The position numbers and the translations under genes were made by a program. The notes below the pieces were generated by a model. It was given only the letters and a program-made list of their open reading frames with translations, searched no databases and was not told where the DNA came from. Of a stretch of DNA of 32,000 nt, positions 5,196 through 15,777 are shown in pieces. This DNA comes from Prochlorococcus marinus str. NATL2A (GTDB lineage Bacteria > Cyanobacteriota > Cyanobacteriia > PCC-6307 > Cyanobiaceae), in contig NC_007335.2 in assembly GCF_000012465.1 (NCBI RefSeq), positions 30,001 to 62,000 of the forward strand, given 5' to 3'. Positions within the stretch are counted from its first letter, which is position 1; the number at the start of each line of letters is the position of its first letter.

Positions 5196-6782
5196 ATGGC
5201 TTCAATGATTTCAGCTGAAAAACGTAATCCAGCAATCGTAATTCTCGATTTTGGTTCTCAATATTCAGAATTAATTGCTCGAAGGATTAGAGAGACAGAG
5301 GTTTACTCATTAGTTATGAGTTACACAACATCTGCTGACCAATTACGTTCACTTAAGCCTAAGGGAATTATTTTAAGCGGAGGTCCTGGATCTGTTTATG
5401 AAGAAGGTGCTCCATATTGTGACCCAGAGATTTTTAATTTAGGAATTCCTGTTCTTGGTGTTTGTTATGGAATGCAATTAATGGTTCATGAGCTAGGAGG
5501 ATCTGTAAAACCTGCTGCTGGGAAAGCCGAATATGGAAAGGCTCCTTTAGAAGTTGATGATCCAACAGCGTTATTAACGAATGTTATTAGTGGTTCAACG
5601 ATGTGGATGAGTCATGGTGATTCAGTTCAGAAATTACCCAAAGGATTTGTCAGATTAGCTCATACTTCGAATACTTTAGAGGCTGCTATTGCTTTGCATG
5701 ATAAGAGCTTTTATGGAGTGCAATTTCATCCCGAAGTTGTTCATTCCACTCATGGAATGGTTGTAATAAGAAATTTTGTCTATGATATTTGCTCTTGTGA
5801 GCCGGATTGGACAACAAATTTATTTATAGATGAAGCTGTTTCTCAAGTACAACAACATGTAGGCGATAAAAAAGTTTTATTGGCTCTATCTGGTGGTGTT
5901 GATTCATCAACTCTTGCATTTTTGTTAAACAAAGCAATAGGACCTCAATTGACGTGCATGTTTATTGATCAAGGTTTTATGAGAAAAGGTGAGCCAGAAT
6001 TTTTAATGTCTTTTTTTGATGAAAAGTTCAAGATTAATGTTGAATACATCAATGCCAGAGAAAGATTTATTTCACAATTAAAAGGAGTAACTGATCCTGA
6101 GCAAAAGCGTAAAATTATAGGTAGAGAATTCATTCGGGTTTTTGAAGAAGAGAGTCTTCGATTAGGCCCTTTTGATTACTTGGCTCAAGGTACGCTTTAT
6201 CCAGATGTAATTGAAAGTTCTGGAACAAATATTGATCCAAAAACTGGCGAACGAATAGCGGTTAAAATTAAAAGTCATCATAATGTAGGAGGGTTGCCAA
6301 AAGATTTGCAATTTAAATTGGTAGAGCCTTTGAGACGTTTATTCAAAGATGAAGTCAGAAAAGTTGGTAAATCACTGGGATTGCCAGATGAGATTGTTCG
6401 AAGACATCCATTTCCAGGTCCAGGATTGGCTATAAGAATTTTAGGAGAGGTTACTCATGAGAAACTAAATTGTTTAAGAGACGCAGATTTAATTGTCAGA
6501 GAGGAAATTAATAATGCTGGCTTGTATAACAAAATTTGGCAGGCTTTCGCAGTTTTATTGCCTGTGTATTCAGTCGGAGTAATGGGAGATCAAAGAACTT
6601 ATGCTTGGCCAATTGTTGTTCGTTGTGTTTCTAGTGAGGATGGGATGACTGCTGATTGGTCGCGTTTGCCGTATGCAGTTTTAGAGAAAATTTCTAACCG
6701 GATAGTTAACGAAGTAGAGGGAGTCAATAGAGTTGTTTTAGATATAACAAGTAAACCCCCTGGAACTATTGAGTGGGAATAG
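5196..6782 (+). CDS. guaA: GMP synthase (glutamine-hydrolysing)
   Basis: GATase GVCYGMQ and HPEV motifs, ATP-PPase SGGVDSS loop, canonical C-terminus PPGTIEWE. Confidence 0.97.
6762..6782 (+). repeat. att core copy 1 (native 3' end of guaA, GGAACTATTGAGTGGGAATAG)
   Basis: Last 6 codons plus the stop of guaA. Repeated at 9220, 10186 (decayed) and 12032. Confidence 0.8.
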
Positions 6783-6803
6783 TTCAGGGTAGTAAAACGT
6801 AGT

Positions 6804-6826
6804 CCACCACTCAAAAAGGTGGTTTT
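6804..6826 (+). terminator. putative guaA terminator hairpin
   Basis: CCACC-actcaaaaa-GGTGG followed by TTTT. The stem is only 5 bp. Confidence 0.45.
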
Positions 6827-6842
6827 GTGTGGGTTTTGTTTG
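6821..6842 (+). repeat. tandem 11-mers GGTTTTGTGTG GGTTTTGTTTG, 38 nt after att copy 1
   Basis: Read directly; 9/11 identical. Followed by GTCACCTT GTCACCTT (6842-6857). Confidence 0.7.
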
Positions 6843-6861
6843 TCACCTTGTCACCTTCTCT
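6839..6861 (+). repeat. inverted repeat, left arm (TTTGTCACCTTGTCACCTTCTCT)
   Basis: Its reverse complement matches 9031-9053 at 22/23 positions. Confidence 0.8.
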
Positions 6862-6870
6862 GTAAAGACA

Positions 6871-6924
6871 TCGTAGATAGTTCATTTTCTCTACACCTGA
6901 ACCGTAGAGAACTTGTAGAGAAAA
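6871..6924. repeat. island palindrome cluster (TCGTAGA..TTCTCTAC-n9-GTAGAGAA-n3-GTAGAGAA)
   Basis: TTCTCTAC at 6887-6894 is the reverse complement of GTAGAGAA at 6904-6911. A second GTAGAGAA lies at 6915-6922. Confidence 0.7.
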
Positions 6925-7102
6925 CGTTGGAGAAAAAGTATTTATTTTGAAATAACTATTTTGCGAGATATGTTACTAAATTGACTACTTTTATAAGACG
7001 ACTTCTTACTCCTTTTTCAGGACTTCATCTTGTCCTCCTTTGAAATGTCAGGTTGATATAAAACAAAAGTTTATTTCTGCTCTATTCAACTATGACATAT
7101 TT

Positions 7103-7136
7103 ACGTAGAGAAATCGTAGAAAGGTATTGTTCTCTG
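7103..7136. repeat. island motif copy (ACGTAGAGAAATCGTAGAAAGG..TTCTCTG)
   Basis: The 16-mer GAGAAATCGTAGAAAG (7108-7123) is identical to 10349-10364. Confidence 0.7.
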
Positions 7137-7168
7137 AAAGATTAAATATTTTTATTCTGTGGAAATTG

Positions 7169-8911
7169 TCAATTCTCCGTTTTAGAAACCCAGAACTGAT
7201 ACATACTTAAGAAGGTCGTGGGATGTTTTTCTTCAAACTTTGCCCAGTTTTGTAAGTTTGTTTGCTTCCTATCTTCTGGGAAATAGTCTTCATATTTAGA
7301 TTTAATTGGTTTTGGAAGTAAGAATCCAAGAAAATTTAATTTATTTGATGTGAGAGTTTCTTGTAGTTGGTTAATGGTGAATCTATGTTCTTGCGTGTGA
7401 ACGCAAAGATCTCGGAATTCCGATAACGAATAGAAGTCAGAAATTGTTTTTAATGAGTTTAAATAGTTTAATTTACTCCCAATAACCTCTTGTCTAAAAT
7501 TACGAATATTTTCTTCGTTCGATTGAATTTTTTTATTGATAAAATAATTCCTTGCCTTAACAATATCTTTTCTTCCTAGTTCACTATATAAACCCAATTT
7601 AAGAAAACCATTATTTTTTAAAACCTTAAATAACATTCTCAAACCTTCTGAGGGATTATCCATATGGTGTAAAACTCCTGAACATAAAATAATATCAAAT
7701 TCTTCCTCTAGTAAATTAACTTTTAAGATATCCATTTGAATTAGTTCAACATTATTAATTCCAAGTTCATTCATCTTTCTTTTAGCATAAGAAATACTAG
7801 ATAAACTTATATCAATAGCAGTTATTTTAGAATTCTCATACTTCTGTGCTTCTAATATTTGCTTACCTGTTCCACATCCAGCAATCAGAACTTTTAATTG
7901 CCCATCTTGTAAAGTTTGATTTATATAATTAGGTTTGATGTCATTATTGATTTGACTGGTAAAAGATATTTTTAGACTTTTTGAATAATTTGCATATCTC
8001 CATCTAGGAAATGGATTTTCTTCATACTGAACTTTTACTTTTTGAGATATATTATCGTTTATAGTTCCTAACTTTTTGATATCATTAGATAATTCAATTT
8101 CTTGGATAGGTTCTTTTATTTGTAATTCTATCAGTTCTTTAAAACTTTTATTAGAAGAATTAATAAATTTTAAAGATGGAATCTGATCAAGAAGTTTATA
8201 TAGTGGAAAATAACAAGATAAAATCGAAATATTTATTTCACTTAATTGACCATCTCTACATCTTTCTATGATTGTATTAAGACACATATTTTCTTCTTCA
8301 GTAGATGAATAAACATAGTCGTTCAAGAAGCATTGCTCTCCTAATGCAGTAATGAATTGTAATTCTAAGTAATTAATAGTCTCTATATTACGAGAGATAT
8401 AATCGCACATATTTCTTCTTACTTTGGTTAGCAGTTTCTCCAGTTCAAGATTACAGAAGATTATCTTTTTAAATGCATTAATAATAACTTTATCATTGAG
8501 AAGTAATTTTATTTTTGAAAAATCTGAATCTAATTTTTGTAGAATACTGATTATTTCACCACTATATAAAAAATTAAATACATTTGCTAATTCTTTATGA
8601 GGCACATCATTTCTTTCTAGTAGAATATTTAATATATTTTTTAAGTTTGATTTGCTTAAATGAGATAGATCTGAATCTCTTAAAAGTCTTGTGATTAAGA
8701 TGTAATTCTTAGAATTTGTTGGATTGGTCTGAATTGCTTTTAAATAAGAATCAAATGCTTTATGAATTCTTTGCTCCTTAAAGGGTTTGGAAGCAGTATT
8801 TGTATTAATAGTGATATTTTCTTTGATTACTTCCAAAGTAAATGGAACTGGGAATGTAATGACTTCATAGACTTTCTTCTTTCTTTCTTCTTTTGGATTA
8901 GGTCTATCCAT
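7169..8911 (-). CDS. class I SAM-dependent methyltransferase with long helical N-terminal region (YEENPFPRW family)
   Basis: VLIAGCGTGKQ motif I, ..DIILCSGVLHH.. and YEENPFPRW. The first ~52 aa are homologous to the 10568-11776 product. Confidence 0.85.
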   Translation of the reverse strand: MDRPNPKEERKKKVYEVITFPVPFTLEVIKENITINTNTASKPFKEQRIHKAFDSYLKAIQTNPTNSKNYILITRLLRDSDLSHLSKSNLKNILNILLERNDVPHKELANVFNFLYSGEIISILQKLDSDFSKIKLLLNDKVIINAFKKIIFCNLELEKLLTKVRRNMCDYISRNIETINYLELQFITALGEQCFLNDYVYSSTEEENMCLNTIIERCRDGQLSEINISILSCYFPLYKLLDQIPSLKFINSSNKSFKELIELQIKEPIQEIELSNDIKKLGTINDNISQKVKVQYEENPFPRWRYANYSKSLKISFTSQINNDIKPNYINQTLQDGQLKVLIAGCGTGKQILEAQKYENSKITAIDISLSSISYAKRKMNELGINNVELIQMDILKVNLLEEEFDIILCSGVLHHMDNPSEGLRMLFKVLKNNGFLKLGLYSELGRKDIVKARNYFINKKIQSNEENIRNFRQEVIGSKLNYLNSLKTISDFYSLSEFRDLCVHTQEHRFTINQLQETLTSNKLNFLGFLLPKPIKSKYEDYFPEDRKQTNLQNWAKFEEKHPTTFLSMYQFWVSKTEN

Positions 8912-9030
8912 CTTCTCTTGTTTTTGCTCTCTTTTAGTTCTTACAAGTTTACTATTAATTCTTTCTTAAACTAGTTACTACTTACAGAGCGAGAATAAAA
9001 AGTAGGTCTATATATTATTTTTGTACCTAA

Positions 9031-9053
9031 AGAGCAGGTGACAAGGTGACAAA
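9031..9053 (-). repeat. inverted repeat, right arm
   Basis: AGAGCAGGTGACAAGGTGACAAA; 22/23 match to the reverse complement of 6839-6861. Confidence 0.8.
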
Positions 9054-9072
9054 ATGTAAGGTGGTGACAAGA

Positions 9073-9104
9073 AATCGTAGAGAAATACTCTACTAATTCT
9101 CTAC
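9073..9104. repeat. island palindrome copy (AATCGTAGAGAA-n12-TTCTCTAC)
   Basis: Perfect 8-bp arms: GTAGAGAA at 9077-9084 and TTCTCTAC at 9097-9104. Confidence 0.75.
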
Positions 9105-9150
9105 ATTTTATCGTTCCACACCAAAAAAACTAAAAAGTAATGGCATTTTC

Positions 9151-9172
9151 ACTTCCACACCACTTCCACACC
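9151..9172 (+). repeat. perfect tandem 11-mers ACTTCCACACC x2, 47 nt before att copy 2
   Basis: Read directly. A third TTCCACACC lies at 9114-9122. The reverse complement contains GTGTGG, as do the 6821 repeats. Confidence 0.8.
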
Positions 9173-9219
9173 GTATAATAAGGGGTGAAATCCGAGTCCA
9201 CCACTCAATTTTTTCCACA

Positions 9220-9240
9220 GGTGCTATTGAGTGGGAATAA
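9220..9240 (+). repeat. att core copy 2 (GGTGCTATTGAGTGGGAATAA)
   Basis: 18/21 identical to the guaA end, same orientation. Preceded by CCACTCAAT (9201-9209), which is the reverse complement of its ATTGAGTGG. Confidence 0.8.
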
Positions 9241-9260
9241 ATAATATTTAATATCTAATA

Positions 9261-10111
9261 ATGTCATCATTAGAGTTACAATTAGGTAGAGAATATAAGA
9301 GAAGAGAATTACATAATTTTTCTAGTGGGCAAAGGTAAGGAGGAATTTCTACTCCTCAGAAATATCCTTATATTTTAATAATTACTTCTAAGCGTGGACA
9401 AGAGCATGGATATGTTGATCGTTGGGTAGAAAATAATAATTTTTTCCTATACACAGGTGAAGGGCAAAGAGGTGATATGGAGTTTAAAGGAGGCAATAAA
9501 GCAATCAAATATCATAGACAAAATGATAAAAAAATATTTTTATTTCAGGAAACGAAAAAACCTTTATTGCATTAAAAGCAGAACTTAATTTTATTGATTA
9601 TAAGTATATTCAAGCTCCTGATACGGAAGGGAAGAATAGAAGAGCAATTCAATTTAGACTTCAATCCGTAAACGCAGAACCAGAAAGGGAAGTGGAACCC
9701 ATTTCAATTACGAAACTACATCTGAAACCTGATAAAACTGAAAGACAAGGTTTAGTAATTAGTAGAGTAGGGCAAGGATATTACAGGCAAGAACTTATTA
9801 AAAAATTTAATGGTAGATGTGCTGTCACATCGATAGATAGAGAGCAGATTTTGATTGCAAGTCATATAGTTCCATGGCGACTATCAACTGATGAGGAAAG
9901 ATTAGATGTAGAGAATGGGATTTTACTCTCTCCTCTTTATGACGCACTTTTTGATAAGCATCTAATTAGTTTTAATGATGATGGCGAAATTTTAATTGCT
10001 AATAGCATTAAAGATGACAACTTAAAAACTAATATTCGTCCAAATGCGAAGATTATAGTTACTGAAGGAATGAAGAAATATCTGTATCGTCATCGACTTT
10101 TGTTGAGATAA
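9261..10111 (+). pseudogene. disrupted SRA/PUA-like + HNH nuclease (type IV restriction-like)
   Basis: The reading frame from ATG 9261 has an in-frame TAA at 9336-9338 (GQR*GGIS). A -1 frame change at the A6 run (9555-9560) joins it to the 9692-10111 ORF. C-terminus: GQGYYRQELIKKFNGRCAVT...ASHIVPW...NGILLSPLYDALFD (HNH_2-like). N-terminus: FFLYTGEGQRGDMEFKGGNKAI (SRA-like). Confidence 0.7.
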
Positions 10112-10116
10112 AAGAG

Positions 10117-10138
10117 GTTACACGTATGTTATACGTGA
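10117..10138 (+). repeat. tandem 11-mers GTTACACGTAT GTTATACGTGA, 47 nt before the decayed att copy
   Basis: 8/11 identical. Also forms the CACGTAT-gtt-ATACGTG palindrome just after the HNH stop codon. Confidence 0.6.
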
Positions 10139-10185
10139 GAAAACTTTCCTTGAGACACTAGTTCACTACTCGATTATTTTTTGCT

Positions 10186-10205
10186 GGATTATAGAGTGGA
10201 AGTAA
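10186..10205 (+). repeat. decayed att core copy (GGATTATAGAGTGGAAGTAA)
   Basis: About two-thirds identical to the guaA end with a 1-nt gap. The left context TTTTTTGCTGGA parallels TTGTTTTGCTAGGA at copy 12032. Confidence 0.5.
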
Positions 10206-10243
10206 TAGTAACGTCTACTTTCCAGTGATAATTTGATTTATAC

Positions 10244-10326
10244 GGTTTTACGTAGGTTTTACGTGAGAGGTATGATGAGGATATAACTAGGGTTTTGAAG
10301 TGTCAGTTTTACGTGGGTTTTACGTG
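10244..10326 (+). repeat. two pairs of tandem 11-mers GGTTTTACGT(A/G); the first pair lies 38 nt after the decayed att
   Basis: Pairs at 10244-10265 and 10305-10326, plus a related GGTTTTGAAG at 10291. Confidence 0.8.
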
Positions 10327-10350
10327 GAACACTTTTACAGTCTCCATGGA

Positions 10351-10380
10351 GAAATCGTAGAAAGTTGATTTTCTCTACAC
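10351..10380. repeat. island palindrome copy (GAAATCGTAGAAAG..TTCTCTACAC)
   Basis: Contains part of the 16-mer shared with 7108-7123. TTCTCTAC at 10371-10378. Confidence 0.7.
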
Positions 10381-10437
10381 TTATAGAAAATTAAAAGCAA
10401 GAATTTCTTTTTTTGATTTTTCTATAAACTCACAATC

Positions 10438-10560
10438 TTAAATGTTTTGCAAGTAGTGAGTTTGTATTTTAGAAACACTGAACTGATACATGCCTGCGAA
10501 GTTCGTGGGATGTTGTTCTTCAAACTTTGCTCAGTTTTGTATGTTGGTTTGTGTTTTACC
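10438..10560 (-). pseudogene. fossil 3' end of a paralogue of the 7169-8911 methyltransferase
   Basis: 10468-10557 is about 80% identical by eye to 7181-7270. It translates on the minus strand as ..TNIQN*AKFEEQHPTNFAGMYQFSVSK.. against ..TNLQNWAKFEEKHPTTFLSMYQFWVSK.. The Trp codon has become TGA (10531-10533). Confidence 0.65.
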
Positions 10561-10567
10561 TTTTTAG

Positions 10568-11776
10568 TTAAACTCCTATTAATTTCACAGCAACTTGCTT
10601 TTCAAAATAAGAAACTGCCAACACTTCATAAGTTAAATTATTTTTAGAGCAAAATTCATTGAGTGCTTTATATTCATCCTGTTCCCAATTTTCACTGATA
10701 ATAAACTCATCAAATATTAAAATTGTATCTTTATCTATTACAGGTTTTGAGCAATTCAAGGCACAGAGAGTAGAAGAATAAAGGTCAGCATCAAAATTGA
10801 TAATTGATGCCATAGGTCTAGGTTTGGAATAAAAAGTTGGAAGGGTATCTTCAAATTTACCTGCTATAAATTCTCCACCCTCAATATTAGGAATGATCCC
10901 TTCTGCTGAATATGTCCCTTGTGCCTCGTGATGCCAATCTTCTGGTAGCCCTTCAAAAGTATCAAACCCATAACCTTTTTTGAAAGTATTAATTAGATAT
11001 CTAAATGAAGCACCCCGCCAAACACCAAATTCATAGAAAGGTCTATCTTTTTTGCTTTTTTTGGTCATACTGTCAAATAATGCCCATCTATAAAAAAACA
11101 ATTCAGGTAACTTCGGCAAATTAGCAACCCATTTAATAGATCGGGTTATAGCATGATCTTTATGAGTGGATTTCGTGAGATTATCAAATAATGATTGGTC
11201 ACCTTGATGTAATTTGAGCGCACTTAGATGGAGTTGTGCTTCTACATGATTTTCATCTATTTTTAAGACTTGATTTACCCTTTCCTCTGCTTCCTTAATA
11301 GTATTCGCTAATCCATATAAATTCCAAGCAGCACCTGTAAGATTAGGTTTAATTTTAATTGCTTTTCGTTGACAAATTTCTGCTTCTTCTAATTTACCAA
11401 GATCATTCAATATGATTCCCAGATTGGAATGTGCTTCTGCGTAATTAGGTTGCATTTCAATTGCTTTGCGAGTAGAAATTTCTGCTTCTTTTAATTTACC
11501 AAGTTGCGCTAATATTACTCCATAATTAGAAAAAACTCTGTGATCATTAAATCCTTCATTTATTAACTGTTGATAATATTTTTTTGCTTCTGCAATCTTT
11601 CCTTGTTTATGTAACATTCTTGCCTTATGAAATTTTTTTTCTTTAGATGGTTTAGACGGAGTTTGAGTAGTAATAGTGATATTTTCTTGATTTTCTCCTA
11701 AAGCAAATGAAATTGGAAATGTCTTTACTTCATAGACTTTCTTTTTTTTTTCTCCTTCTTGACTAGAACCATCCAT
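10568..11776 (-). CDS. TPR-repeat protein fused to a TylF/macrocin-type O-methyltransferase domain
   Basis: Three TPR units (AEAKKYYQQLI.., AEAHSNLGIIL..). C-terminus: FYEFGVWRGASF, FDADLYSST and ILIFDEF, typical of the TylF family. Confidence 0.85.
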   Translation of the reverse strand: MDGSSQEGEKKKKVYEVKTFPISFALGENQENITITTQTPSKPSKEKKFHKARMLHKQGKIAEAKKYYQQLINEGFNDHRVFSNYGVILAQLGKLKEAEISTRKAIEMQPNYAEAHSNLGIILNDLGKLEEAEICQRKAIKIKPNLTGAAWNLYGLANTIKEAEERVNQVLKIDENHVEAQLHLSALKLHQGDQSLFDNLTKSTHKDHAITRSIKWVANLPKLPELFFYRWALFDSMTKKSKKDRPFYEFGVWRGASFRYLINTFKKGYGFDTFEGLPEDWHHEAQGTYSAEGIIPNIEGGEFIAGKFEDTLPTFYSKPRPMASIINFDADLYSSTLCALNCSKPVIDKDTILIFDEFIISENWEQDEYKALNEFCSKNNLTYEVLAVSYFEKQVAVKLIGV

Positions 11777-11896
11777 CTTCTCTTATCTTTCTCTCTTTTG
11801 GTTTTGCTGATCTTACTCCTAATCTCGTCCCTTTCTAATTCTTTCTAAAATCATTTATTACTTTTAGAGGAAGGTTAATAAATATTTTCAATGAAC

Positions 11897-11907
11897 TTTC
11901 TACGATT
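11897..11907 (-). repeat. island motif copy, inverted (AATCGTAGAAA on the minus strand)
   Basis: Read directly. Confidence 0.5.
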
Positions 11908-11963
11908 ATTCAGAAAATCAACTCATAGAATAGAACTAACTCTGTTTATCTCTGAACTTTTTC

Positions 11964-11985
11964 AGTTTGTCACGGGTTTGTCACG
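11964..11985 (+). repeat. tandem 11-mers AGTTTGTCACG GGTTTGTCACG, 46 nt before att copy 3
   Basis: 10/11 identical. Related to the GTTTGTCACC repeats at 6838-6857. Confidence 0.8.
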
Positions 11986-12031
11986 ATCCAATAATCCTTG
12001 AGAATCCAGTTATATTCTTATTTGTTTTGCT

Positions 12032-12052
12032 AGGAACTATTGAGTGGGAGTA
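12032..12052 (+). repeat. att core copy 3 (GGAACTATTGAGTGGGAGTAA)
   Basis: 19/21 identical to the guaA end, same orientation. Confidence 0.85.
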
Positions 12053-12113
12053 ACTAGAACCTCTACTTTTCAGTTTTATTCATGTTTATTCTTGTAATTC
12101 TGATTTTAACGAC

Positions 12114-12136
12114 GTCGTAGAAATCTTTCTCTAAAC
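12114..12136. repeat. island motif copy (GTCGTAGAAATCTTTCTCTAAAC)
   Basis: Degenerate version of the ATCGTAGA..TTCTCTAC unit, located after the last att copy. Confidence 0.5.
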
Positions 12137-12295
12137 TTATAAATTTAATTTCTGATTAATTTTCAAACTAGAAACTTACTTTCTGCTCTGACCATGCGCT
12201 CGATTATTGCTTGCTTGGTTGAACTTTGTATTCCAATCAAGAATTAATTATGGCGAGGCTTCGAAAAAGACGTGATCATTTAAATAAGAGATAGT

Positions 12296-13033
12296 TTGGA
12301 TCAAATGTCATTTGAAGTTACTTACAATGGCGACATTCAATACATTAAAGTTTTCTACTCAACTGAAAAAACGAGAGCTGGAAAATACTATGGCGAGTTT
12401 TATAAAAAAATGGATGCATTAGCGAGTGACTTAAAACGCCTTAAACAAGAACTTGATGAAGATTGTGAAAAGGCAGCCAAGATTGCTAAAGATGCTGCCA
12501 ACAAGGCACTTTCTGAAAGATTTGGCTCACTTCGCTACATTATTGATGAGCATCTATGGGATCAAGACATTGTTATCAGCAAGATTCTTGACGATAGAAA
12601 AGAAGAGATGTTGGCTTTAGCACAGAAGACTTTTAATAATGAAGTTCTTCTTGAAGAGGATGGTGCAGAGGAATACAAAATCCACTTGGATGAAGGGGGA
12701 ATTGAAGTTGATGGTAAAAGTGTTGAGACATCGATAATGGAGTTTTTTGATTCTGACGACTACCACGAATCGAATGAGGCAAAACTAGAAAAATTGGAAA
12801 AACTGGATTGGTTTATCATCTGGTCGAGAACCGAGGCGGGAGAGTTTAGGACAGAGGGTGGACAACATGAGGGAAATTATTCATCAAAGGAATTAAATAT
12901 GGAAGATTGTTTGCTTACCTACAGAGATTTACCCCTTGTTAATCCCTCTAATGGCACGGACATCTTCAGTAATGAACTTGAAATTCATTTTGTAGATGAA
13001 ACCAGGGCATCCCTTGAGATAAGTGAATCTTAA
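12296..13033 (+). CDS. hypothetical, strongly acidic protein (probable start ATG 12305)
   Basis: 245-aa ORF with many D/E residues and a predicted coiled-coil stretch (LKRLKQELDEDCEKAAKIAKDAANKAL). No domain recognised. Confidence 0.55.
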   Translation: MDQMSFEVTYNGDIQYIKVFYSTEKTRAGKYYGEFYKKMDALASDLKRLKQELDEDCEKAAKIAKDAANKALSERFGSLRYIIDEHLWDQDIVISKILDDRKEEMLALAQKTFNNEVLLEEDGAEEYKIHLDEGGIEVDGKSVETSIMEFFDSDDYHESNEAKLEKLEKLDWFIIWSRTEAGEFRTEGGQHEGNYSSKELNMEDCLLTYRDLPLVNPSNGTDIFSNELEIHFVDETRASLEISES

Positions 13034-13208
13034 GAAGTATTCTCATGAATTTGATTATCAACTAATTTCCAACTATTGCAATTCAGTTCTCTTTGAGTTC
13101 TGTAGCATTCACTAAATAGATTTGTCTTGTGTTTTTAATTTGGTTGGATTTCCTTAAATATTGCTATGGCAGATTTGCCTCAAAACACTTGGATAATTCA
13201 AAAGATCC

Positions 13209-13251
13209 AAAAAGCAACTTTGTACTACTAGTACTTATCAAGGTGCTTTTT
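13209..13251. terminator. possible bidirectional hairpin
   Basis: AAAAAGCA..CTT..GTACTAcTAGTAC..AAG..TGCTTTTT. AT-rich, imperfect. Confidence 0.3.
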
Positions 13252-13317
13252 GCTCATGAATGCTCGTGTGAGGCATTTTTTGTACAGAGGCACTATTTTT
13301 GCGTTTAGTGTCGTCAC

Positions 13318-14181
13318 TTGATCAGAGGAAAAATCAGTAAGATTTGCCTAACTTATATACATTCCTATTTAAGCTTGCGGGTGGCTATGAATGAATTACG
13401 TTTAAGAATCTATAAGCAGCTAAAAAATGACTCACCAGAAGGGAGAACTTCTGTATTCAATAAAATCTGTGGAGTTACTATTTTTATTTCGATTTTTTTC
13501 GCAGTTATGGTTACTGAAAACTCAATCGATTATCAATTTGGAGATCAAATAGATCTTTTAGATTGGATTATTGGTGGTTGGTTTTGCGTTGAATATCTGT
13601 GTCGTTTATGGGTCGCACCACTTGAAAAAAAATATGGACAAGGTTGGAAAGGCGTTTTTCGTTATGTAATCTCACCAATGTCAATTATTGATGTAATTGC
13701 AATCGTCCCTTCTTTTTTTGGTGTTCGTGCTGAATTAAAAATTCTCAGGATTATTCGCCTTTTAAGAATCTTGAAAATTGGAAGAAGTGAAAAATTTAAG
13801 CAAAGTATTTTTCACTTCAATTATGCACTTCGGTCAAAGAGTCAAGAACTACAAATTTCGACTTTTTATACAGTTTTACTTTTGTTGATTAGCAGTACTT
13901 TTATGTATCTTGCTGAATCGTCCATTCAACCAGGATTGTTAGGTTCAATTCCAAGATGTCTTTGGTGGTCGATTACAACTGTCAGTGCTGTTGGTTATGG
14001 AGATTCAATACCTGTCACAGCATTGGGAAAAATAATTGCATCGATTACTTCTCTTATGGGTATTGCTGCAATTGCAATACCTACTGGAATCCTTGCGTCT
14101 GGATTCAGCGAATCAATTGGTGCACAAGCTAAAAATCAAAATGTTTCGAATGGAATTCAGGGTCCTAGTAATACTGGTTAA
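13318..14181 (+). CDS. voltage-gated-type K+ channel (probable start ATG 13387)
   Basis: TTVSAVGYGD selectivity filter. S4-like LKILRIIRLLRILKIGR with R/K at every third position. Flanking hydrophobic helices. Confidence 0.85.
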   Translation: MIRGKISKICLTYIHSYLSLRVAMNELRLRIYKQLKNDSPEGRTSVFNKICGVTIFISIFFAVMVTENSIDYQFGDQIDLLDWIIGGWFCVEYLCRLWVAPLEKKYGQGWKGVFRYVISPMSIIDVIAIVPSFFGVRAELKILRIIRLLRILKIGRSEKFKQSIFHFNYALRSKSQELQISTFYTVLLLLISSTFMYLAESSIQPGLLGSIPRCLWWSITTVSAVGYGDSIPVTALGKIIASITSLMGIAAIAIPTGILASGFSESIGAQAKNQNVSNGIQGPSNTG

Positions 14182-14361
14182 AAATGATATTCAAATTAAA
14201 TAAAAGTATATTTTTCAGTCAATAAAGAAGAAATAGATCTCTTGGTTTCATTAAGTGCAACTGACGCAAATACAGAAAAGAAAGGGAGAGATCTCCATAA
14301 TTCTTGATCGCATGATTTACAGAGCCATTGGGCCGAATACTGGAAAAATTTAAGACATAAT

Positions 14362-14387
14362 AAAAGGGGCGAGACTTAGTTCACCCC
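14362..14387 (-). terminator. rho-independent terminator of the 14444-14680 gene
   Basis: Minus strand GGGGTGA-actaagtc-TCGCCCC followed by TTTTAT. The stem includes one G-U pair, so it is strand specific. Confidence 0.6.
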
Positions 14388-14443
14388 ATATTTGTTATCG
14401 AGTGATCATTTGAATAATCATTTACTATGTTGACTTATAACTA

Positions 14444-14680
14444 CTAACCACCATTGCAGAAGCGAACTGCATCTGATGAACTCTTGCCAGTAGCTTGAAT
14501 CTCCTCAACACATTCATTGAACACCTTTGATTCTTGTTTAAGTGAGCAAAAACTTAGAGCGATTGCAGTAAGAGCGAGAGCAGAAACTACACTAGAGCCT
14601 AGCTGAATAATGCCATAAGCAAACATAGCTTTGCCTTTTCTACTGCACTTTTTTTTGTCTGTTTTATTCTCTTCGGTCAT
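14444..14680 (-). CDS. small single-pass membrane protein, hypothetical
   Basis: 78-aa ORF with a basic N-terminus, one TM helix (FAYGIIQLGSSVVSALALTAIALSF) and its own terminator. Confidence 0.5.
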   Translation of the reverse strand: MTEENKTDKKKCSRKGKAMFAYGIIQLGSSVVSALALTAIALSFCSLKQESKVFNECVEEIQATGKSSSDAVRFCNGG

Positions 14681-14801
14681 TTGTAAATTAGTTAATTCCT
14701 TAAATTAATTGATTTGTTGGTGAATTTATTTCAATAATTGTCGTGAATACCGTTCTCATTACTTGTTTTGGATTTTGCTTTTTCTAAATCAAAATAAGCA
14801 C

Positions 14802-14893
14802 AAAAAACCGCCCCATTCTGAACAAGACGGTTTTTTTAAGATCAGGCACAAGTGTTTCCTTGTTTCCACTGCGCAGGATCTCAACTCTTCACA
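14802..14893 (-). ncRNA. Yfr2-family-like sRNA
   Basis: The minus strand reads ..GCGCAGUGGAAACAAGGAAACACUUGUGC.. with GGAAACA twice in a hairpin loop. Terminator ACCGUCUUGUUCAGAAUGGGGCGGU + U6 needs G-U pairs, so it is minus-strand specific. TATAAC-like -10 just upstream. The 5' end is approximate. Confidence 0.55.
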
Positions 14894-14983
14894 GTTATAT
14901 ATTTACTAAGCTAATGAAAAACTCAAATATTAGAAGGCTGGTCTATCTTGTGGCACATGTCACAATTTGCAAAAGTAGTCATT

Positions 14984-15060
14984 AAAAAACACCCTGCTTA
15001 CAATAAGTCGGGTGCTTTATTTAACAGAACGATTGTGTGAGGAGTTGTCCTGTTAATTTC
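14984..15060 (-). ncRNA. yfr1: Yfr1 sRNA
   Basis: Exact ACUCCUCACAC on the minus strand (15035-15045). It is enclosed by the 7-bp inverted repeat UUAACAG/CUGUUAA and followed by CACCC..GGGUG + U6 (14984-15014). Intergenic location. The 5' end is approximate. Confidence 0.7.
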
Positions 15061-15151
15061 TTTCTACTCTAATGAGGACTTTTTGTCACTACTAAAAAAC
15101 AAAATGATTTAGATCATGAGATTTAATTGTTTTGTGACTTGCAAGATTAAT

Positions 15152-15469
15152 TTATTCTTCTGCGTTCTCAAACTGTTTTGCTAATCTAAAACCTTTTCTG
15201 AGAATTAAATAGATTCCATATAAACCAGCAATTAACGGAAGAACTATGAGAGGGTTTGGGCTATAACTAGAGTAATCTTTTACACCATCGACGTATTCGA
15301 TCCCTGAGCATTTCAAGTAAAGAAAACTTGTGAATACAATTCCCCAGCCAATAATTGAGAGAATCCCTCCTTTTTTGTCACCTTCATAAAATCTATCTAA
15401 ACCCCATCCCCAACCAATAGCAAGGATCACTCCTCTTGTGACAGCATTTTTCTCTTGCTTACGTAGCAT
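15152..15469 (-). CDS. TM2-domain membrane protein
   Basis: GWGLDRFYEGDKKGGILSIIGWGI matches the TM2 pattern. Two to three hydrophobic helices. Confidence 0.7.
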   Translation of the reverse strand: MLRKQEKNAVTRGVILAIGWGWGLDRFYEGDKKGGILSIIGWGIVFTSFLYLKCSGIEYVDGVKDYSSYSPNPLIVLPLIAGLYGIYLILRKGFRLAKQFENAEE

Positions 15470-15777
15470 TGTTTTTGTTTGAGTATGTTCGCAATGAACA
15501 TAACTGAATAATTGTTATTTTGCACAAACTGATTTAAGAAGATACTTGTTATTATAAGAATTTGGGTATCGTTTGCTAGAAAATTAGTTTGAAATTATGC
15601 GAATTAGAATCCCTGTCAAATAAAAAATAGAGAATTAGATTGGAAGTGATCAAAATAAATTCTATCTGTACCTTTTGAAGTTAGATCAATTTGAGGATTC
15701 CTAAGTTGAGCAATCTTGTTCGGGGGGGTGGTCTATTTCAAAAAAAAAAGATAACTTAGTTCAATGGCCTATTACTT

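Follow-up and report, generated by a model that had tools for sequence, protein, structure and literature searches.

An array of small cassettes at the guaA stop codon of Prochlorococcus marinus NATL2A, probably built by serial site-specific integration

In Prochlorococcus marinus str. NATL2A, the GMP synthase gene guaA is followed by an array of three small cassettes bounded by direct repeats of the last 21 bp of that gene. This array lies within the 32,000-nt stretch of DNA analyzed here, referred to below as the window (NCBI RefSeq assembly GCF_000012465.1, contig NC_007335.2, positions 30,001 to 62,000 of the forward strand; coordinates are those of the window, and L numbers denote loci and contigs used for comparison). 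With a probability of roughly three in four, we interpret the array as an additive island that grew as one element after another integrated site-specifically at the guaA stop codon, most likely through tyrosine recombinases acting on lambda-type attP sites, and the units present in the window as decayed, rearranged, and recombinase-less. The last ~21 bp of guaA would represent the chromosomal attachment site (attB) at which a family of small Prochlorococcus elements integrates; an incoming element would bring the same core between its own arms (attP), and recombination within the core would insert the element, supply guaA with a new stop codon, and shift the old host core end to the far side of the insert. 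Repeated insertion at the guaA-proximal site would stack cassettes with a core copy between each. The three units in the window would have lost, or never had, a recombinase gene and would later have been scrambled by deletion and homologous exchange between related cassettes, a step that we include because their two arms do not match. We infer this order of events. The guaA gene and the core copies in the window are:

5196-6782, + strand: guaA (GMP synthase, 528 aa; Pfam GATase, 2e-46, and GMP_synt_C, 5e-46), the final 21 nt of which are the attachment core.
6762-6782, + strand: native core copy, attL-like, GGAACTATTGAGTGGGAATAG, 0 mismatches.
9220-9240, + strand: core copy 2, GGTGCTATTGAGTGGGAATAA, 3 mismatches to GGAACTATTGAGTGGGAATAG.
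10183-10205, + strand: decayed core copy, GCTGGATTATAGAGTGGAAGTAA, with a right flank homologous to intact-core flanks in relatives.
12033-12053, + strand: core copy 3, GGAACTATTGAGTGGGAGTAA, 2 mismatches to GGAACTATTGAGTGGGAATAG.

The guaA open reading frame (ORF) is intact, and direct repeats of its 3′ end bound the inserts. Same-orientation repeats of the 21-mer had been reported in an earlier note on this DNA; they are present, and none is expected by chance (0 matches to GGAACTATTGAGTGGGAATAG in 100 shuffles). That note placed copy 3 at 12032-12052, one base too low. The decayed copy, which the note had also proposed, is regarded as genuine because its right flank, tagtaacgtctactttccagtgata, has homologues to the right of intact cores in two related genomes (L003 13867 and L002 14549). 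All three non-native copies end in the stop codon TAA, as claimed. The direct repeat also contains GAGTGGGA, the sequence by which guaA-associated islands are defined (PMC7775301).

To compare the guaA-downstream junction across relatives, as the earlier note had proposed, species-representative genomes were scanned with the GuaA C-terminus, which yielded 12 Prochlorococcus-like loci, and metagenomes were scanned with the Prochlorococcus-type guaA end, which yielded ~40 marine low-GC contigs with the same features. Empty sites, other fillings, and extra cassettes with duplicated cores were all found. Two contigs (L166 and L184) presented an empty site, in which guaA and a single core (ending GAGTAA) are followed by a chromosomal flank toward a PD-(D/E)XK gene. 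The occupied counterpart (L150) contains guaA, a core ending GAATAG, an opposite-strand gene encoding a 389-aa HNH-type nuclease, a second core (AGAACCATTGAGTGGGAGTAA), and an L166-type flank; the insert is 1,551 bp long with the core duplicated (by BLAST, L150 1-594 corresponds to L166 3350-3943 and L150 2144-2815 to L166 3922-4594), and the native GAGTAA end remains with the chromosomal flank. L004 presented a 167-bp mini-cassette and an extra core ahead of the flank that in L001 and L008 comes immediately after guaA. Contigs encoding an identical 528-aa GuaA (99.6-100% nucleotide identity in guaA) presented three states after the core, namely one flank directly after it (L306, L309, and L310), another flank with another stop codon (L308), and, in L311, a 118-bp unit and a duplicated core preceding the first of these flanks; guaA of L311 and guaA of L306, which lacks this extra mini-cassette, are 99.9% identical. 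Over 2,479 nt upstream, L302 matches L305 at 100% identity, with divergence starting at core position 17. Many guaA metagenome contigs stop 31-456 nt past guaA, as expected of a heterogeneous population. The empty, differently filled, and duplicated-core sites support serial integration that regenerates the guaA ORF end, as the earlier note had suggested; a segment syntenic and invariant in all relatives, with the 21-mer next to no recombinase anywhere, which it had named as grounds for abandoning this model, is not what the comparison revealed. As a separate observation, five metagenome contigs of 3-15 kb (L303, L304, L305, L307, and L310) end 31-173 nt past the guaA stop, a systematic assembly break.

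The DNA downstream of guaA is hypervariable among the twelve Prochlorococcus-like loci. In MIT0603 (L006), the homologue of window sequence 15863 onward begins ~450 bp past guaA, and the island in the window therefore spans 6783 to ~15780; L003 shares the flank from 12137 on with the window and carries different cassettes. L002, L004, and L008 each contain four to five core copies in one orientation. Altogether, 26 secondary, non-coding core copies were identified downstream of guaA in Prochlorococcus-like genomes and marine contigs, all in the orientation of guaA with the sole exception of one inverted copy in L300. Over these 26 copies, conservation forms a sharp block at core positions 1-20, with a peak over CTATTGAGTGGGAATA, while the flanks reach 30-60%. 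Cassettes measure 0.1-3.5 kb, with up to five cores per array, and most contain a single gene (one contains a recombinase operon); the cargo of neighboring units is unrelated and includes a nuclease, methyltransferases, a restriction-modification system, a beta-propeller protein, and a recombinase module. The hotspot is present in low-light and high-light clades, and related cassettes are 77-82% identical irrespective of host relatedness, such that cassette identity is decoupled from host identity.

Variation within and around the core indicates where strands were exchanged. The first four to six bases of the core (e.g., GGAA, GGTG, GGTT, and AGAA) covary with the type of left flank, and the last Glu codon and the stop codon (TAG, TAA, or TGA) covary with the type of right flank; the crossover is therefore placed within CTATTGAGTGGGA. 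The native site contains a dyad, GAACTATT-GAGTGGG-AATAGTTC (6763-6785, flank included), with 8-bp inverted repeats around a 7-bp spacer (8-7-8), and the predicted DNA fold of the site lengthens the pairing (CCTGGAACTATT with AATAGTTCAGGG). Strand exchange would be expected to occur in the GAGTGGG overlap. Inverted half-sites around an overlap of 6-8 bp are the core layout of tyrosine recombinases; serine recombinases cut at a central dinucleotide, and an odd 7-bp spacer does not suit such a 2-bp crossover.

Arm-related sequences open and close every unit. To the right of the core are a spacer of ~18 nt, a 14-nt box (AGTCCACCACTCAA in the window, AGTYATAG... in high-light clades), and then tandem 11-bp repeats in one or two clusters; the next core is preceded on its left by a repeat cluster of the same kind, a -10-like hexamer, the box, and a spacer of 11-25 nt. 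The 14-mer AGTCCACCACTCAA was found at both places given in the earlier note (6801-6814 and 9195-9208). The 11-bp repeat varies by cassette (GTTCCCCGTG, GTTCCACGTG, CTTCACCGTG, GTTTTACGTG, GTTTGTCACG, GCTCACCC, and others), and an exact word of at least 10 nt is common to both arms of the same cassette in 13 of 21 full cassettes, as compared to 6% of 420 non-self pairs. Within the window, tandem 11-mers of this arm type are restricted to the array; the one other match (8871) is located within the cargo-1 coding sequence. The arms look like an integrated lambda-type attP with arm-type sites, a likeness that implies a tyrosine recombinase. The 8-7-8 dyad, the matched tandem 11-bp arm repeats, and the conserved box ~18 nt from the core point in the same direction, and the enzyme would presumably be a lambda-type tyrosine recombinase with an arm-binding domain. 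Arms-only units (107-191 bp), five in the twelve Prochlorococcus-like genome loci plus one in L311, are most simply explained as deletions between direct arm repeats. The possibility that the arm box is an inverted core copy was also considered and set aside; it is true for "a-type" arms (including both in the window) and weakly enriched overall.

The three-unit split of the array and the cargo assignments in the earlier note (a methyltransferase, a nuclease pseudogene, and a methyltransferase with tetratricopeptide repeats (TPR)) hold by Pfam and translation. The features of the array, in which the 14-nt box is labeled M box and the tandem 11-bp repeats are labeled X units, are:

6783-6900, + strand: P′ arm of unit 1 (element-type right arm), homologous to arms after guaA in L003 and L004.
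6801-6814, + strand: 14-mer M box AGTCCACCACTCAA in the P′ arm of unit 1.
6806-6823: terminator-like hairpin in the P′ arm of unit 1.
6821-6839: tandem X units in the P′ arm of unit 1.
6840-6855: TTGTCACC, two copies, in the P′ arm of unit 1.
7109-7285, strand unassigned: conserved backbone module, probably non-coding, which includes repeat D2 (7180-7275) and overlaps the 3′ end of the cargo-1 ORF.
7169-8911, - strand: cargo 1, encoding a 580-aa class-I SAM (S-adenosylmethionine) methyltransferase (Pfam Methyltransf_31/25/11; PADLOC mad2, 3e-18).
9028-9053: inverted partner of 6839-6864 (26 nt, 92% complementary); the pair flanks cargo 1 on both sides.
9150-9219, + strand: P arm of unit 1 (left arm), 89% identical to L004 10222-10286.
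9150-9172, + strand: X units CACTTCCACAC, two copies, in the P arm of unit 1.
9168-9178: -10-like box, e.g., CACCGTATAAT, in the P arm of unit 1.
9195-9208, + strand: M box AGTCCACCACTCAA in the P arm of unit 1.
9263-10111, + strand: cargo 2, a restriction-type HNH_2 nuclease pseudogene, in which three-frame translation revealed one in-frame stop and one frameshift (Pfam HNH_2, 2e-13).
9692-10111, + strand: intact C-terminal ORF of cargo 2.
10116-10182, + strand: P arm of unit 2, with X units GGTTACACGTA/TGTTATACGTG at 10116-10137 and M-like AGTTCACTACTCGA at 10160-10173.
10206-10380, + strand: P′ arm of unit 3, with an M-like box at 10224-10237.
10244-10265 and again 10305-10326: X units GGTTTTACGTR, two copies, in the P′ arm of unit 3.
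10352-10370: motif AAATCGTAGAAAG in the P′ arm of unit 3.
10467-10562: second copy of backbone module D2, outside the cargo ORF and immediately adjoining it.
10568-11776, - strand: cargo 3, encoding a 402-aa TPR and TylF/Methyltransf_24 methyltransferase (Pfam).
11890-12032, + strand: P arm of unit 3; the same arm is found at L004 12256 and 15446.
11890-11907: inverted AAATCGTAGAAAG motif in the P arm of unit 3.
11964-11985: X units GTTTGTCACG, two copies, in the P arm of unit 3, which also has an M-like box at 12008-12021.
12054-12136, + strand: truncated P′-like flank; homology to the distal island of relatives picks up at 12137.

Several results weigh against integration as the origin of the array, and the arms of the window units are among them, as the two arms of a unit are mismatched and their longest common word is 6-7 nt. 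The left arm of unit 1 carries GTTTTGTGTG and TTGTCACC and its right arm CTTCCACACC; unit 2 is without a left arm; in unit 3, the left arm carries GTTTTACGTG, and the right arm, which is the one that recurs in L004, carries GTTTGTCACG. The array is also fixed in this lineage; look-ups of the exact GuaA and of the exact methyltransferase each returned at least 24 contigs from the strain lineage, all with the array integrated and in a constant context, and thus revealed neither within-strain polymorphism nor any direct sign of mobility. At junctions with identical sequence upstream, homologous recombination within guaA and site-specific exchange would leave one and the same pattern. The ~60 Prochlorococcus-like loci examined (12 genome loci, ~40 marine contigs, and 10 further contigs) yielded no tyrosine recombinase gene, and neither IMG/VR nor the deposited phages yielded an attP-like sequence. 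The mismatched arms, together with the shared cargo modules described below and the 77-82% identity of related cassettes, indicate that the window units are hybrids that arose by homologous exchange and deletion; being mismatched in their arms and fixed in the strain, they are best regarded as relics rather than as demonstrably mobile units. The decay that the earlier note had named as one of two possibilities is supported by these same two observations.

The search for the recombinase covered all Prochlorococcus-like loci by ORF lists, Pfam, PHROGs, and the box I/box II motif, and integrase matches were confined to three non-cyanobacterial contigs (L173, L218, and L155). In L218, guaA and the core are followed by an integrase with Arm-DNA-bind_4 and Phage_integrase domains, and in L155 an integrase fragment is located between two cores; a 21-mer core beside a tyrosine recombinase, which the earlier note had suggested looking for, thus exists in non-cyanobacterial DNA (L218, L155, and L173), while none was found at the Prochlorococcus arrays. 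Neither a P4-family integrase or AlpA-like ORF nor a replication module (primase, helicase, or polymerase) was found at the locus. ORF and Pfam checks bore out the statement that the 32-kb window holds no integrase or replication gene, and no tRNA, recombinase, or packaging gene was found there either. A scan of IMG/VR with the core alone yielded 51 matches, mostly guaA ends at the edges of non-cyanobacterial prophage contigs; scans with the P-arm class, the core plus box (two versions), and the box alone yielded chance matches or none, and BLAST searches of the window att region and two reconstructed attP sequences against deposited phages yielded chance-level matches only. No parent or helper element bearing an integrase was found in the collections searched, although absence there is no proof. 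Many of the IMG/VR contigs (L085, L086, L089, L091, L094, L101, L104, L115, L118, L119, L127, and others) begin or end within ~130 nt of the guaA 3′ end; these contigs, from non-cyanobacterial hosts, are probably prophages at the same site, with predicted boundaries that overrun into guaA. In another IMG/VR contig (L112, 624 kb), the guaA end is followed at about 115-180 by GTTGAATGGGAATAG in three tandem copies, each a short repeat of the core 3′ half.

Among the other explanations, it is possible, while clearly less probable than decay, that the cassettes, each with one gene and a complete attP scaffold, are still mobile but non-autonomous, with a recombinase located elsewhere (on a rare helper element, in a phage, or in a host gene) that acts in trans, as on an integron-like platform. 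The arms are well conserved and match within cassettes, arms-only mini-cassettes are frequent (one in L311 and five in the 12 Prochlorococcus-like genome loci), differing states follow an identical GuaA at 99.6-100% nucleotide identity in guaA, many metagenome contigs end within 31-456 nt of guaA, and the cassettes are diverse though none encodes an integrase. However, no helper or free attP was found, the window array is invariant in its own lineage, no near-identical cassette was seen in distant hosts (best identity 82%), and the mini-cassettes are equally well explained by deletion between direct arm repeats. The broader version of this idea, in which all Prochlorococcus clades keep an integron-like platform of tiny, mostly single-gene cassettes at the guaA stop, none encoding a recombinase and each with an attP scaffold of core, conserved box, and cassette-matched 11-bp arm repeats, served by an unlinked recombinase, is a little more tentative still. 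A replacement island appears improbable; here, RecA-dependent homologous swapping would use guaA as its left-hand homology and the conserved arms, the backbone, or the downstream core gene as its right-hand one, with the cores as passive boundaries. The abrupt switch at the gene end between L302 and L305, which are 100% identical upstream, and the long homologous backbone segments common to cassettes (D1, D2, and TPR repeats) are consistent with such swapping, and the hybrid arms in the window indicate that exchanges of this kind occur. Swapping cannot, however, make duplicated cores around an insert (L150, L004, and L311), and it leaves unexplained the 20-nt conservation block in non-coding copies, the dyad symmetry, and the consistent covariation breakpoint inside the core.

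Three further explanations seem very unlikely. Tandem duplication or unequal crossing-over of an ancestral unit that included the guaA end, followed by divergence of the cargo, would account for the N-terminal and 3′ modules shared by the two TPR-type cargo genes and for the distant homology of all arm types; it is hard to reconcile with the unrelated cargo of neighboring units, with the same 21-nt boundary in 26 copies with unrelated flanks, with the existence of empty sites, or with independent insertions at the same core in unrelated lineages (the L150 and L311 cases). Recombination of the core as a folded single strand, through a hairpin with inverted CCACTCAAT in the arm as in integron attC or CTX-phage attP, fares no better. 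The 9-bp stem on which this rests, which the earlier note had pointed out, does exist as a predicted DNA fold (9201-9209 with 9226-9234) but is weak and unremarkable (-6.9 kcal/mol, z -1.7), and neither copy 3 nor the decayed copy has it; arms are enriched in inverted partial cores (at least 8/12 matches in 19-23% of flanks vs 6-10% of shuffles), yet a good inverted core is missing from most arms, and the double-stranded dyad of the core itself is the stronger feature. Finally, a small serine recombinase might move the cassettes, e.g., the one encoded, together with phage-like small proteins, in the matched-arm cassette of L008 (13196-15855), where it is a Resolvase and helix-turn-helix protein and of which a homologue adjoins a core copy in L300. 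This candidate was rejected as the core enzyme, as its homologues are abundant (1,821 proteins) and occur in other islands without a guaA core nearby (L299 and L301), these homologues have their own conserved palindromic site upstream of the gene, and the odd 7-bp spacer between the 8-bp inverted repeats is unsuited to a 2-bp central crossover.

The serine recombinase belongs to a module that is widespread in Prochlorococcus islands (the 1,821 homologues are those at E<=1e-20). The module consists of the recombinase and three or four tiny genes, two of which match PHROG 869 and 16908, and it was located at L008 14377-15737, L299 10001-11541, L300 10001-11226, and L301 8542-10085; a conserved upstream region of ~130 nt contains the palindrome GTATAAAA...TTTTATAC. 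In the single-cell genome L300 (GCA_003282005.1, QCAH01000002.1; 4708-20589), the argJ-side and guaA islands are joined and guaA is reversed, the ~25-kb core segment between the islands appears inverted relative to the window, and the core copy at 8302 (+) is opposite to the others; this arrangement may reflect either a genuine inter-island inversion or an error of assembly. In L301, a ~200-bp boundary sequence of a different island is repeated at 300-500 and 12530-12730 and contains tandem AGTGTGAT units at 11-bp spacing; arm-like tandem repeats may thus be general at Prochlorococcus island junctions, beyond guaA.

The cargo of the window presents shared modules and a distinct composition. 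The G+C content of the array is 30.7%, as compared to 36.9% for guaA and 35.7% for the rest of the window. Cargo 1 and cargo 3 are 77% identical over their 5′ region and first ~55 codons (repeat D1; 8756-8925 vs 11621-11790) and share the N-terminal motif KKKVYEV.TFP; many TPR cargo proteins of related islands begin likewise, a pattern suggestive of one shared N-terminal module joined to a variety of enzyme domains. The match of cargo 2 to the PADLOC HNH models is confined to profile positions 142-235 of 286. Repeat D2 (7180-7275) is 83% identical to 10467-10562 and 87-91% identical to guaA-adjacent segments in L001, L004, and L007; as a module of ~150 nt (window 7109-7285 and 10467-10562, L001 10537-10690, L004 10442-10591, and L007 10488-10632), it maintains 83-91% identity across cassettes and genomes whose core genes share just 70-76%. 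One window cassette has D2 inside its ORF and the other has it outside; the module is therefore probably conserved as a non-coding element, such as a 3′ UTR (untranslated region), a terminator, or a small RNA. A recurrent motif, ATCGTAGA(R)A / TTCTCTAC, often forms short hairpins (6866-6925, 7100-7135, 9066-9106, 10349-10380, 11890-11907, and 12113-12137), and AAATCGTAGAAAG is found at a distance of ~147 nt from the left core, and in inverted form at ~140 nt from the right one, in unit 3 of the window and in units 2 and 4 of L004. The 26-nt inverted pair around cargo 1 and the inverted AAATCGTAGAAAG around several TPR cassettes raised the idea of a transposon with terminal inverted repeats, which was rejected, as flanking duplications are lacking and the pattern does not hold generally.

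Beyond the array, the island continues with an older part, the features of which are:

12137-15777: distal, older island part without core copies, common to L003 and L004 and absent from MIT0603 (L006).
12296-13033: 245-aa ORF.
13318-14181: ion channel.
14834-14898, - strand: Cyano-1 RNA (59 bits, above the gathering score).
14974-15054, - strand: Yfr10-like match, sub-threshold.
From 15778: conserved 203-aa gene, which marks the end of the distal island.

Rfam yielded no match over the array; the Cyano-1 match and the sub-threshold Yfr10 match are in the distal island only. Relatives of the Cyano-1 region are also located within guaA islands at L003 10647-10990 and L004 19098-19170.

Integration at the 3′ end of guaA is documented in other bacteria, and the likeness that the earlier note drew to guaA-targeting islands elsewhere is correct (PMC7775301, PMC5704250). 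ICERspD18B inserts at this end and is bounded by ACAATNGAGTGGGAATNNTT (PMC7775301); as quoted in PMC7775301, Song et al. (2012) describe guaA islands as usually carrying a P4-type integrase and AlpA and take GAGTGGGA as the cutting site. Elements at the guaA 3′ end also include ATE-1, the Brucella IncP island, and GIsul2, and integrative and mobilizable elements (IMEs) with tyrosine recombinases at this end are listed in the same source (PMC5704250). These islands and the window array are alike in their target, the last ~20 bp of guaA, in a direct repeat with GAGTGGGA and regeneration of the ORF end, and, for the window array by inference, in tyrosine recombinase chemistry. However, the islands elsewhere are single, 10-100 kb long, and equipped with a P4-type integrase (and AlpA) and often with transfer or replication genes, while the arrays described here contain up to five cores and units of 0.1-3.5 kb, with no integrase at the locus and a cyanobacterial host. 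The accretion model of cis-mobilizable elements (CIMEs), exemplified by the ICESt1 integrative and conjugative element (ICE) family at fda of Streptococcus thermophilus (PMC5704250, section 2.3), likewise concerns att-flanked units without integration or transfer genes at the 3′ end of a protein-coding gene, in arrays built when a newcomer integrates into an att site belonging to a remnant already in place. CIMEs differ in that they derive from recognizable ICEs or IMEs with a known cognate element, whereas no parent was found here in the collections searched and the units have a compact conserved arm scaffold in common.

Tycheposons share with the array the host, growth at a fixed site by site-specific integration, the kinds of cargo, and partial att copies between neighboring or decayed elements, with newer insertions pushing older ones inward; their hallmark module with a small serine recombinase is found here in one cassette. 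They differ in using tRNA or tmRNA sites (the tycheposon preprint names seven, and no protein-coding one; Hackl et al., bioRxiv 10.1101/2020.12.28.424599), in their size of 10-20 kb, and in carrying a recombinase (tyrosine or large serine) and, as a rule, a replication module, whereas the site here is the protein-coding gene guaA and no tycheposon-clade recombinase, replication module, or window tRNA was found. Integrons also consist of mostly single-gene units that each end in a recombination site and lack their own recombinase, with very high turnover at one chromosomal spot; here, in contrast, no intI, attI, or Pc lies beside the array, the upstream neighbor is guaA, the sites are near-identical gene-end copies with a double-stranded dyad rather than variable attC hairpins, and the cargo is on either strand with its own upstream region. 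Because it has no integrase, the array does not qualify as a tycheposon, an integron, or a guaA island in the sense of Song et al.; it fits a CIME-like, att-flanked remnant at a known kind of site. We found no literature that links Prochlorococcus to guaA integration, and the guaA 3′ end, a known hotspot in other bacteria, appears to be unreported as one in this genus.

The array has a bearing on several aspects of Prochlorococcus biology. To our knowledge, Prochlorococcus has no plasmids and no conjugation or competence genes, and the acquisition of its very large flexible gene pool is explained only in part; tycheposons at seven tRNA genes are the sole acquisition mechanism that we know to have been described so far. 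The guaA locus adds a protein-coding hotspot, with turnover among cells whose guaA genes are 99.6-100% identical and with cargo of surface-modification and anti-phage type in very small units. For annotation, it explains the variable guaA stop codon (TAG, TAA, or TGA) and the assembly breaks just past guaA. As the compact arm scaffold comes without a recombinase, the core, box, and arm repeats serve as search sequences for the missing enzyme, and they also allow testing for trans movement of non-autonomous cassettes in the ocean. If the tentative integron-like platform at guaA is real, it would represent a second island-building route beside tycheposons, and the first at a protein-coding gene in Prochlorococcus, in which an unlinked recombinase, host-encoded or carried by phages or vesicles, would insert, excise, and shuffle the guaA cassettes.

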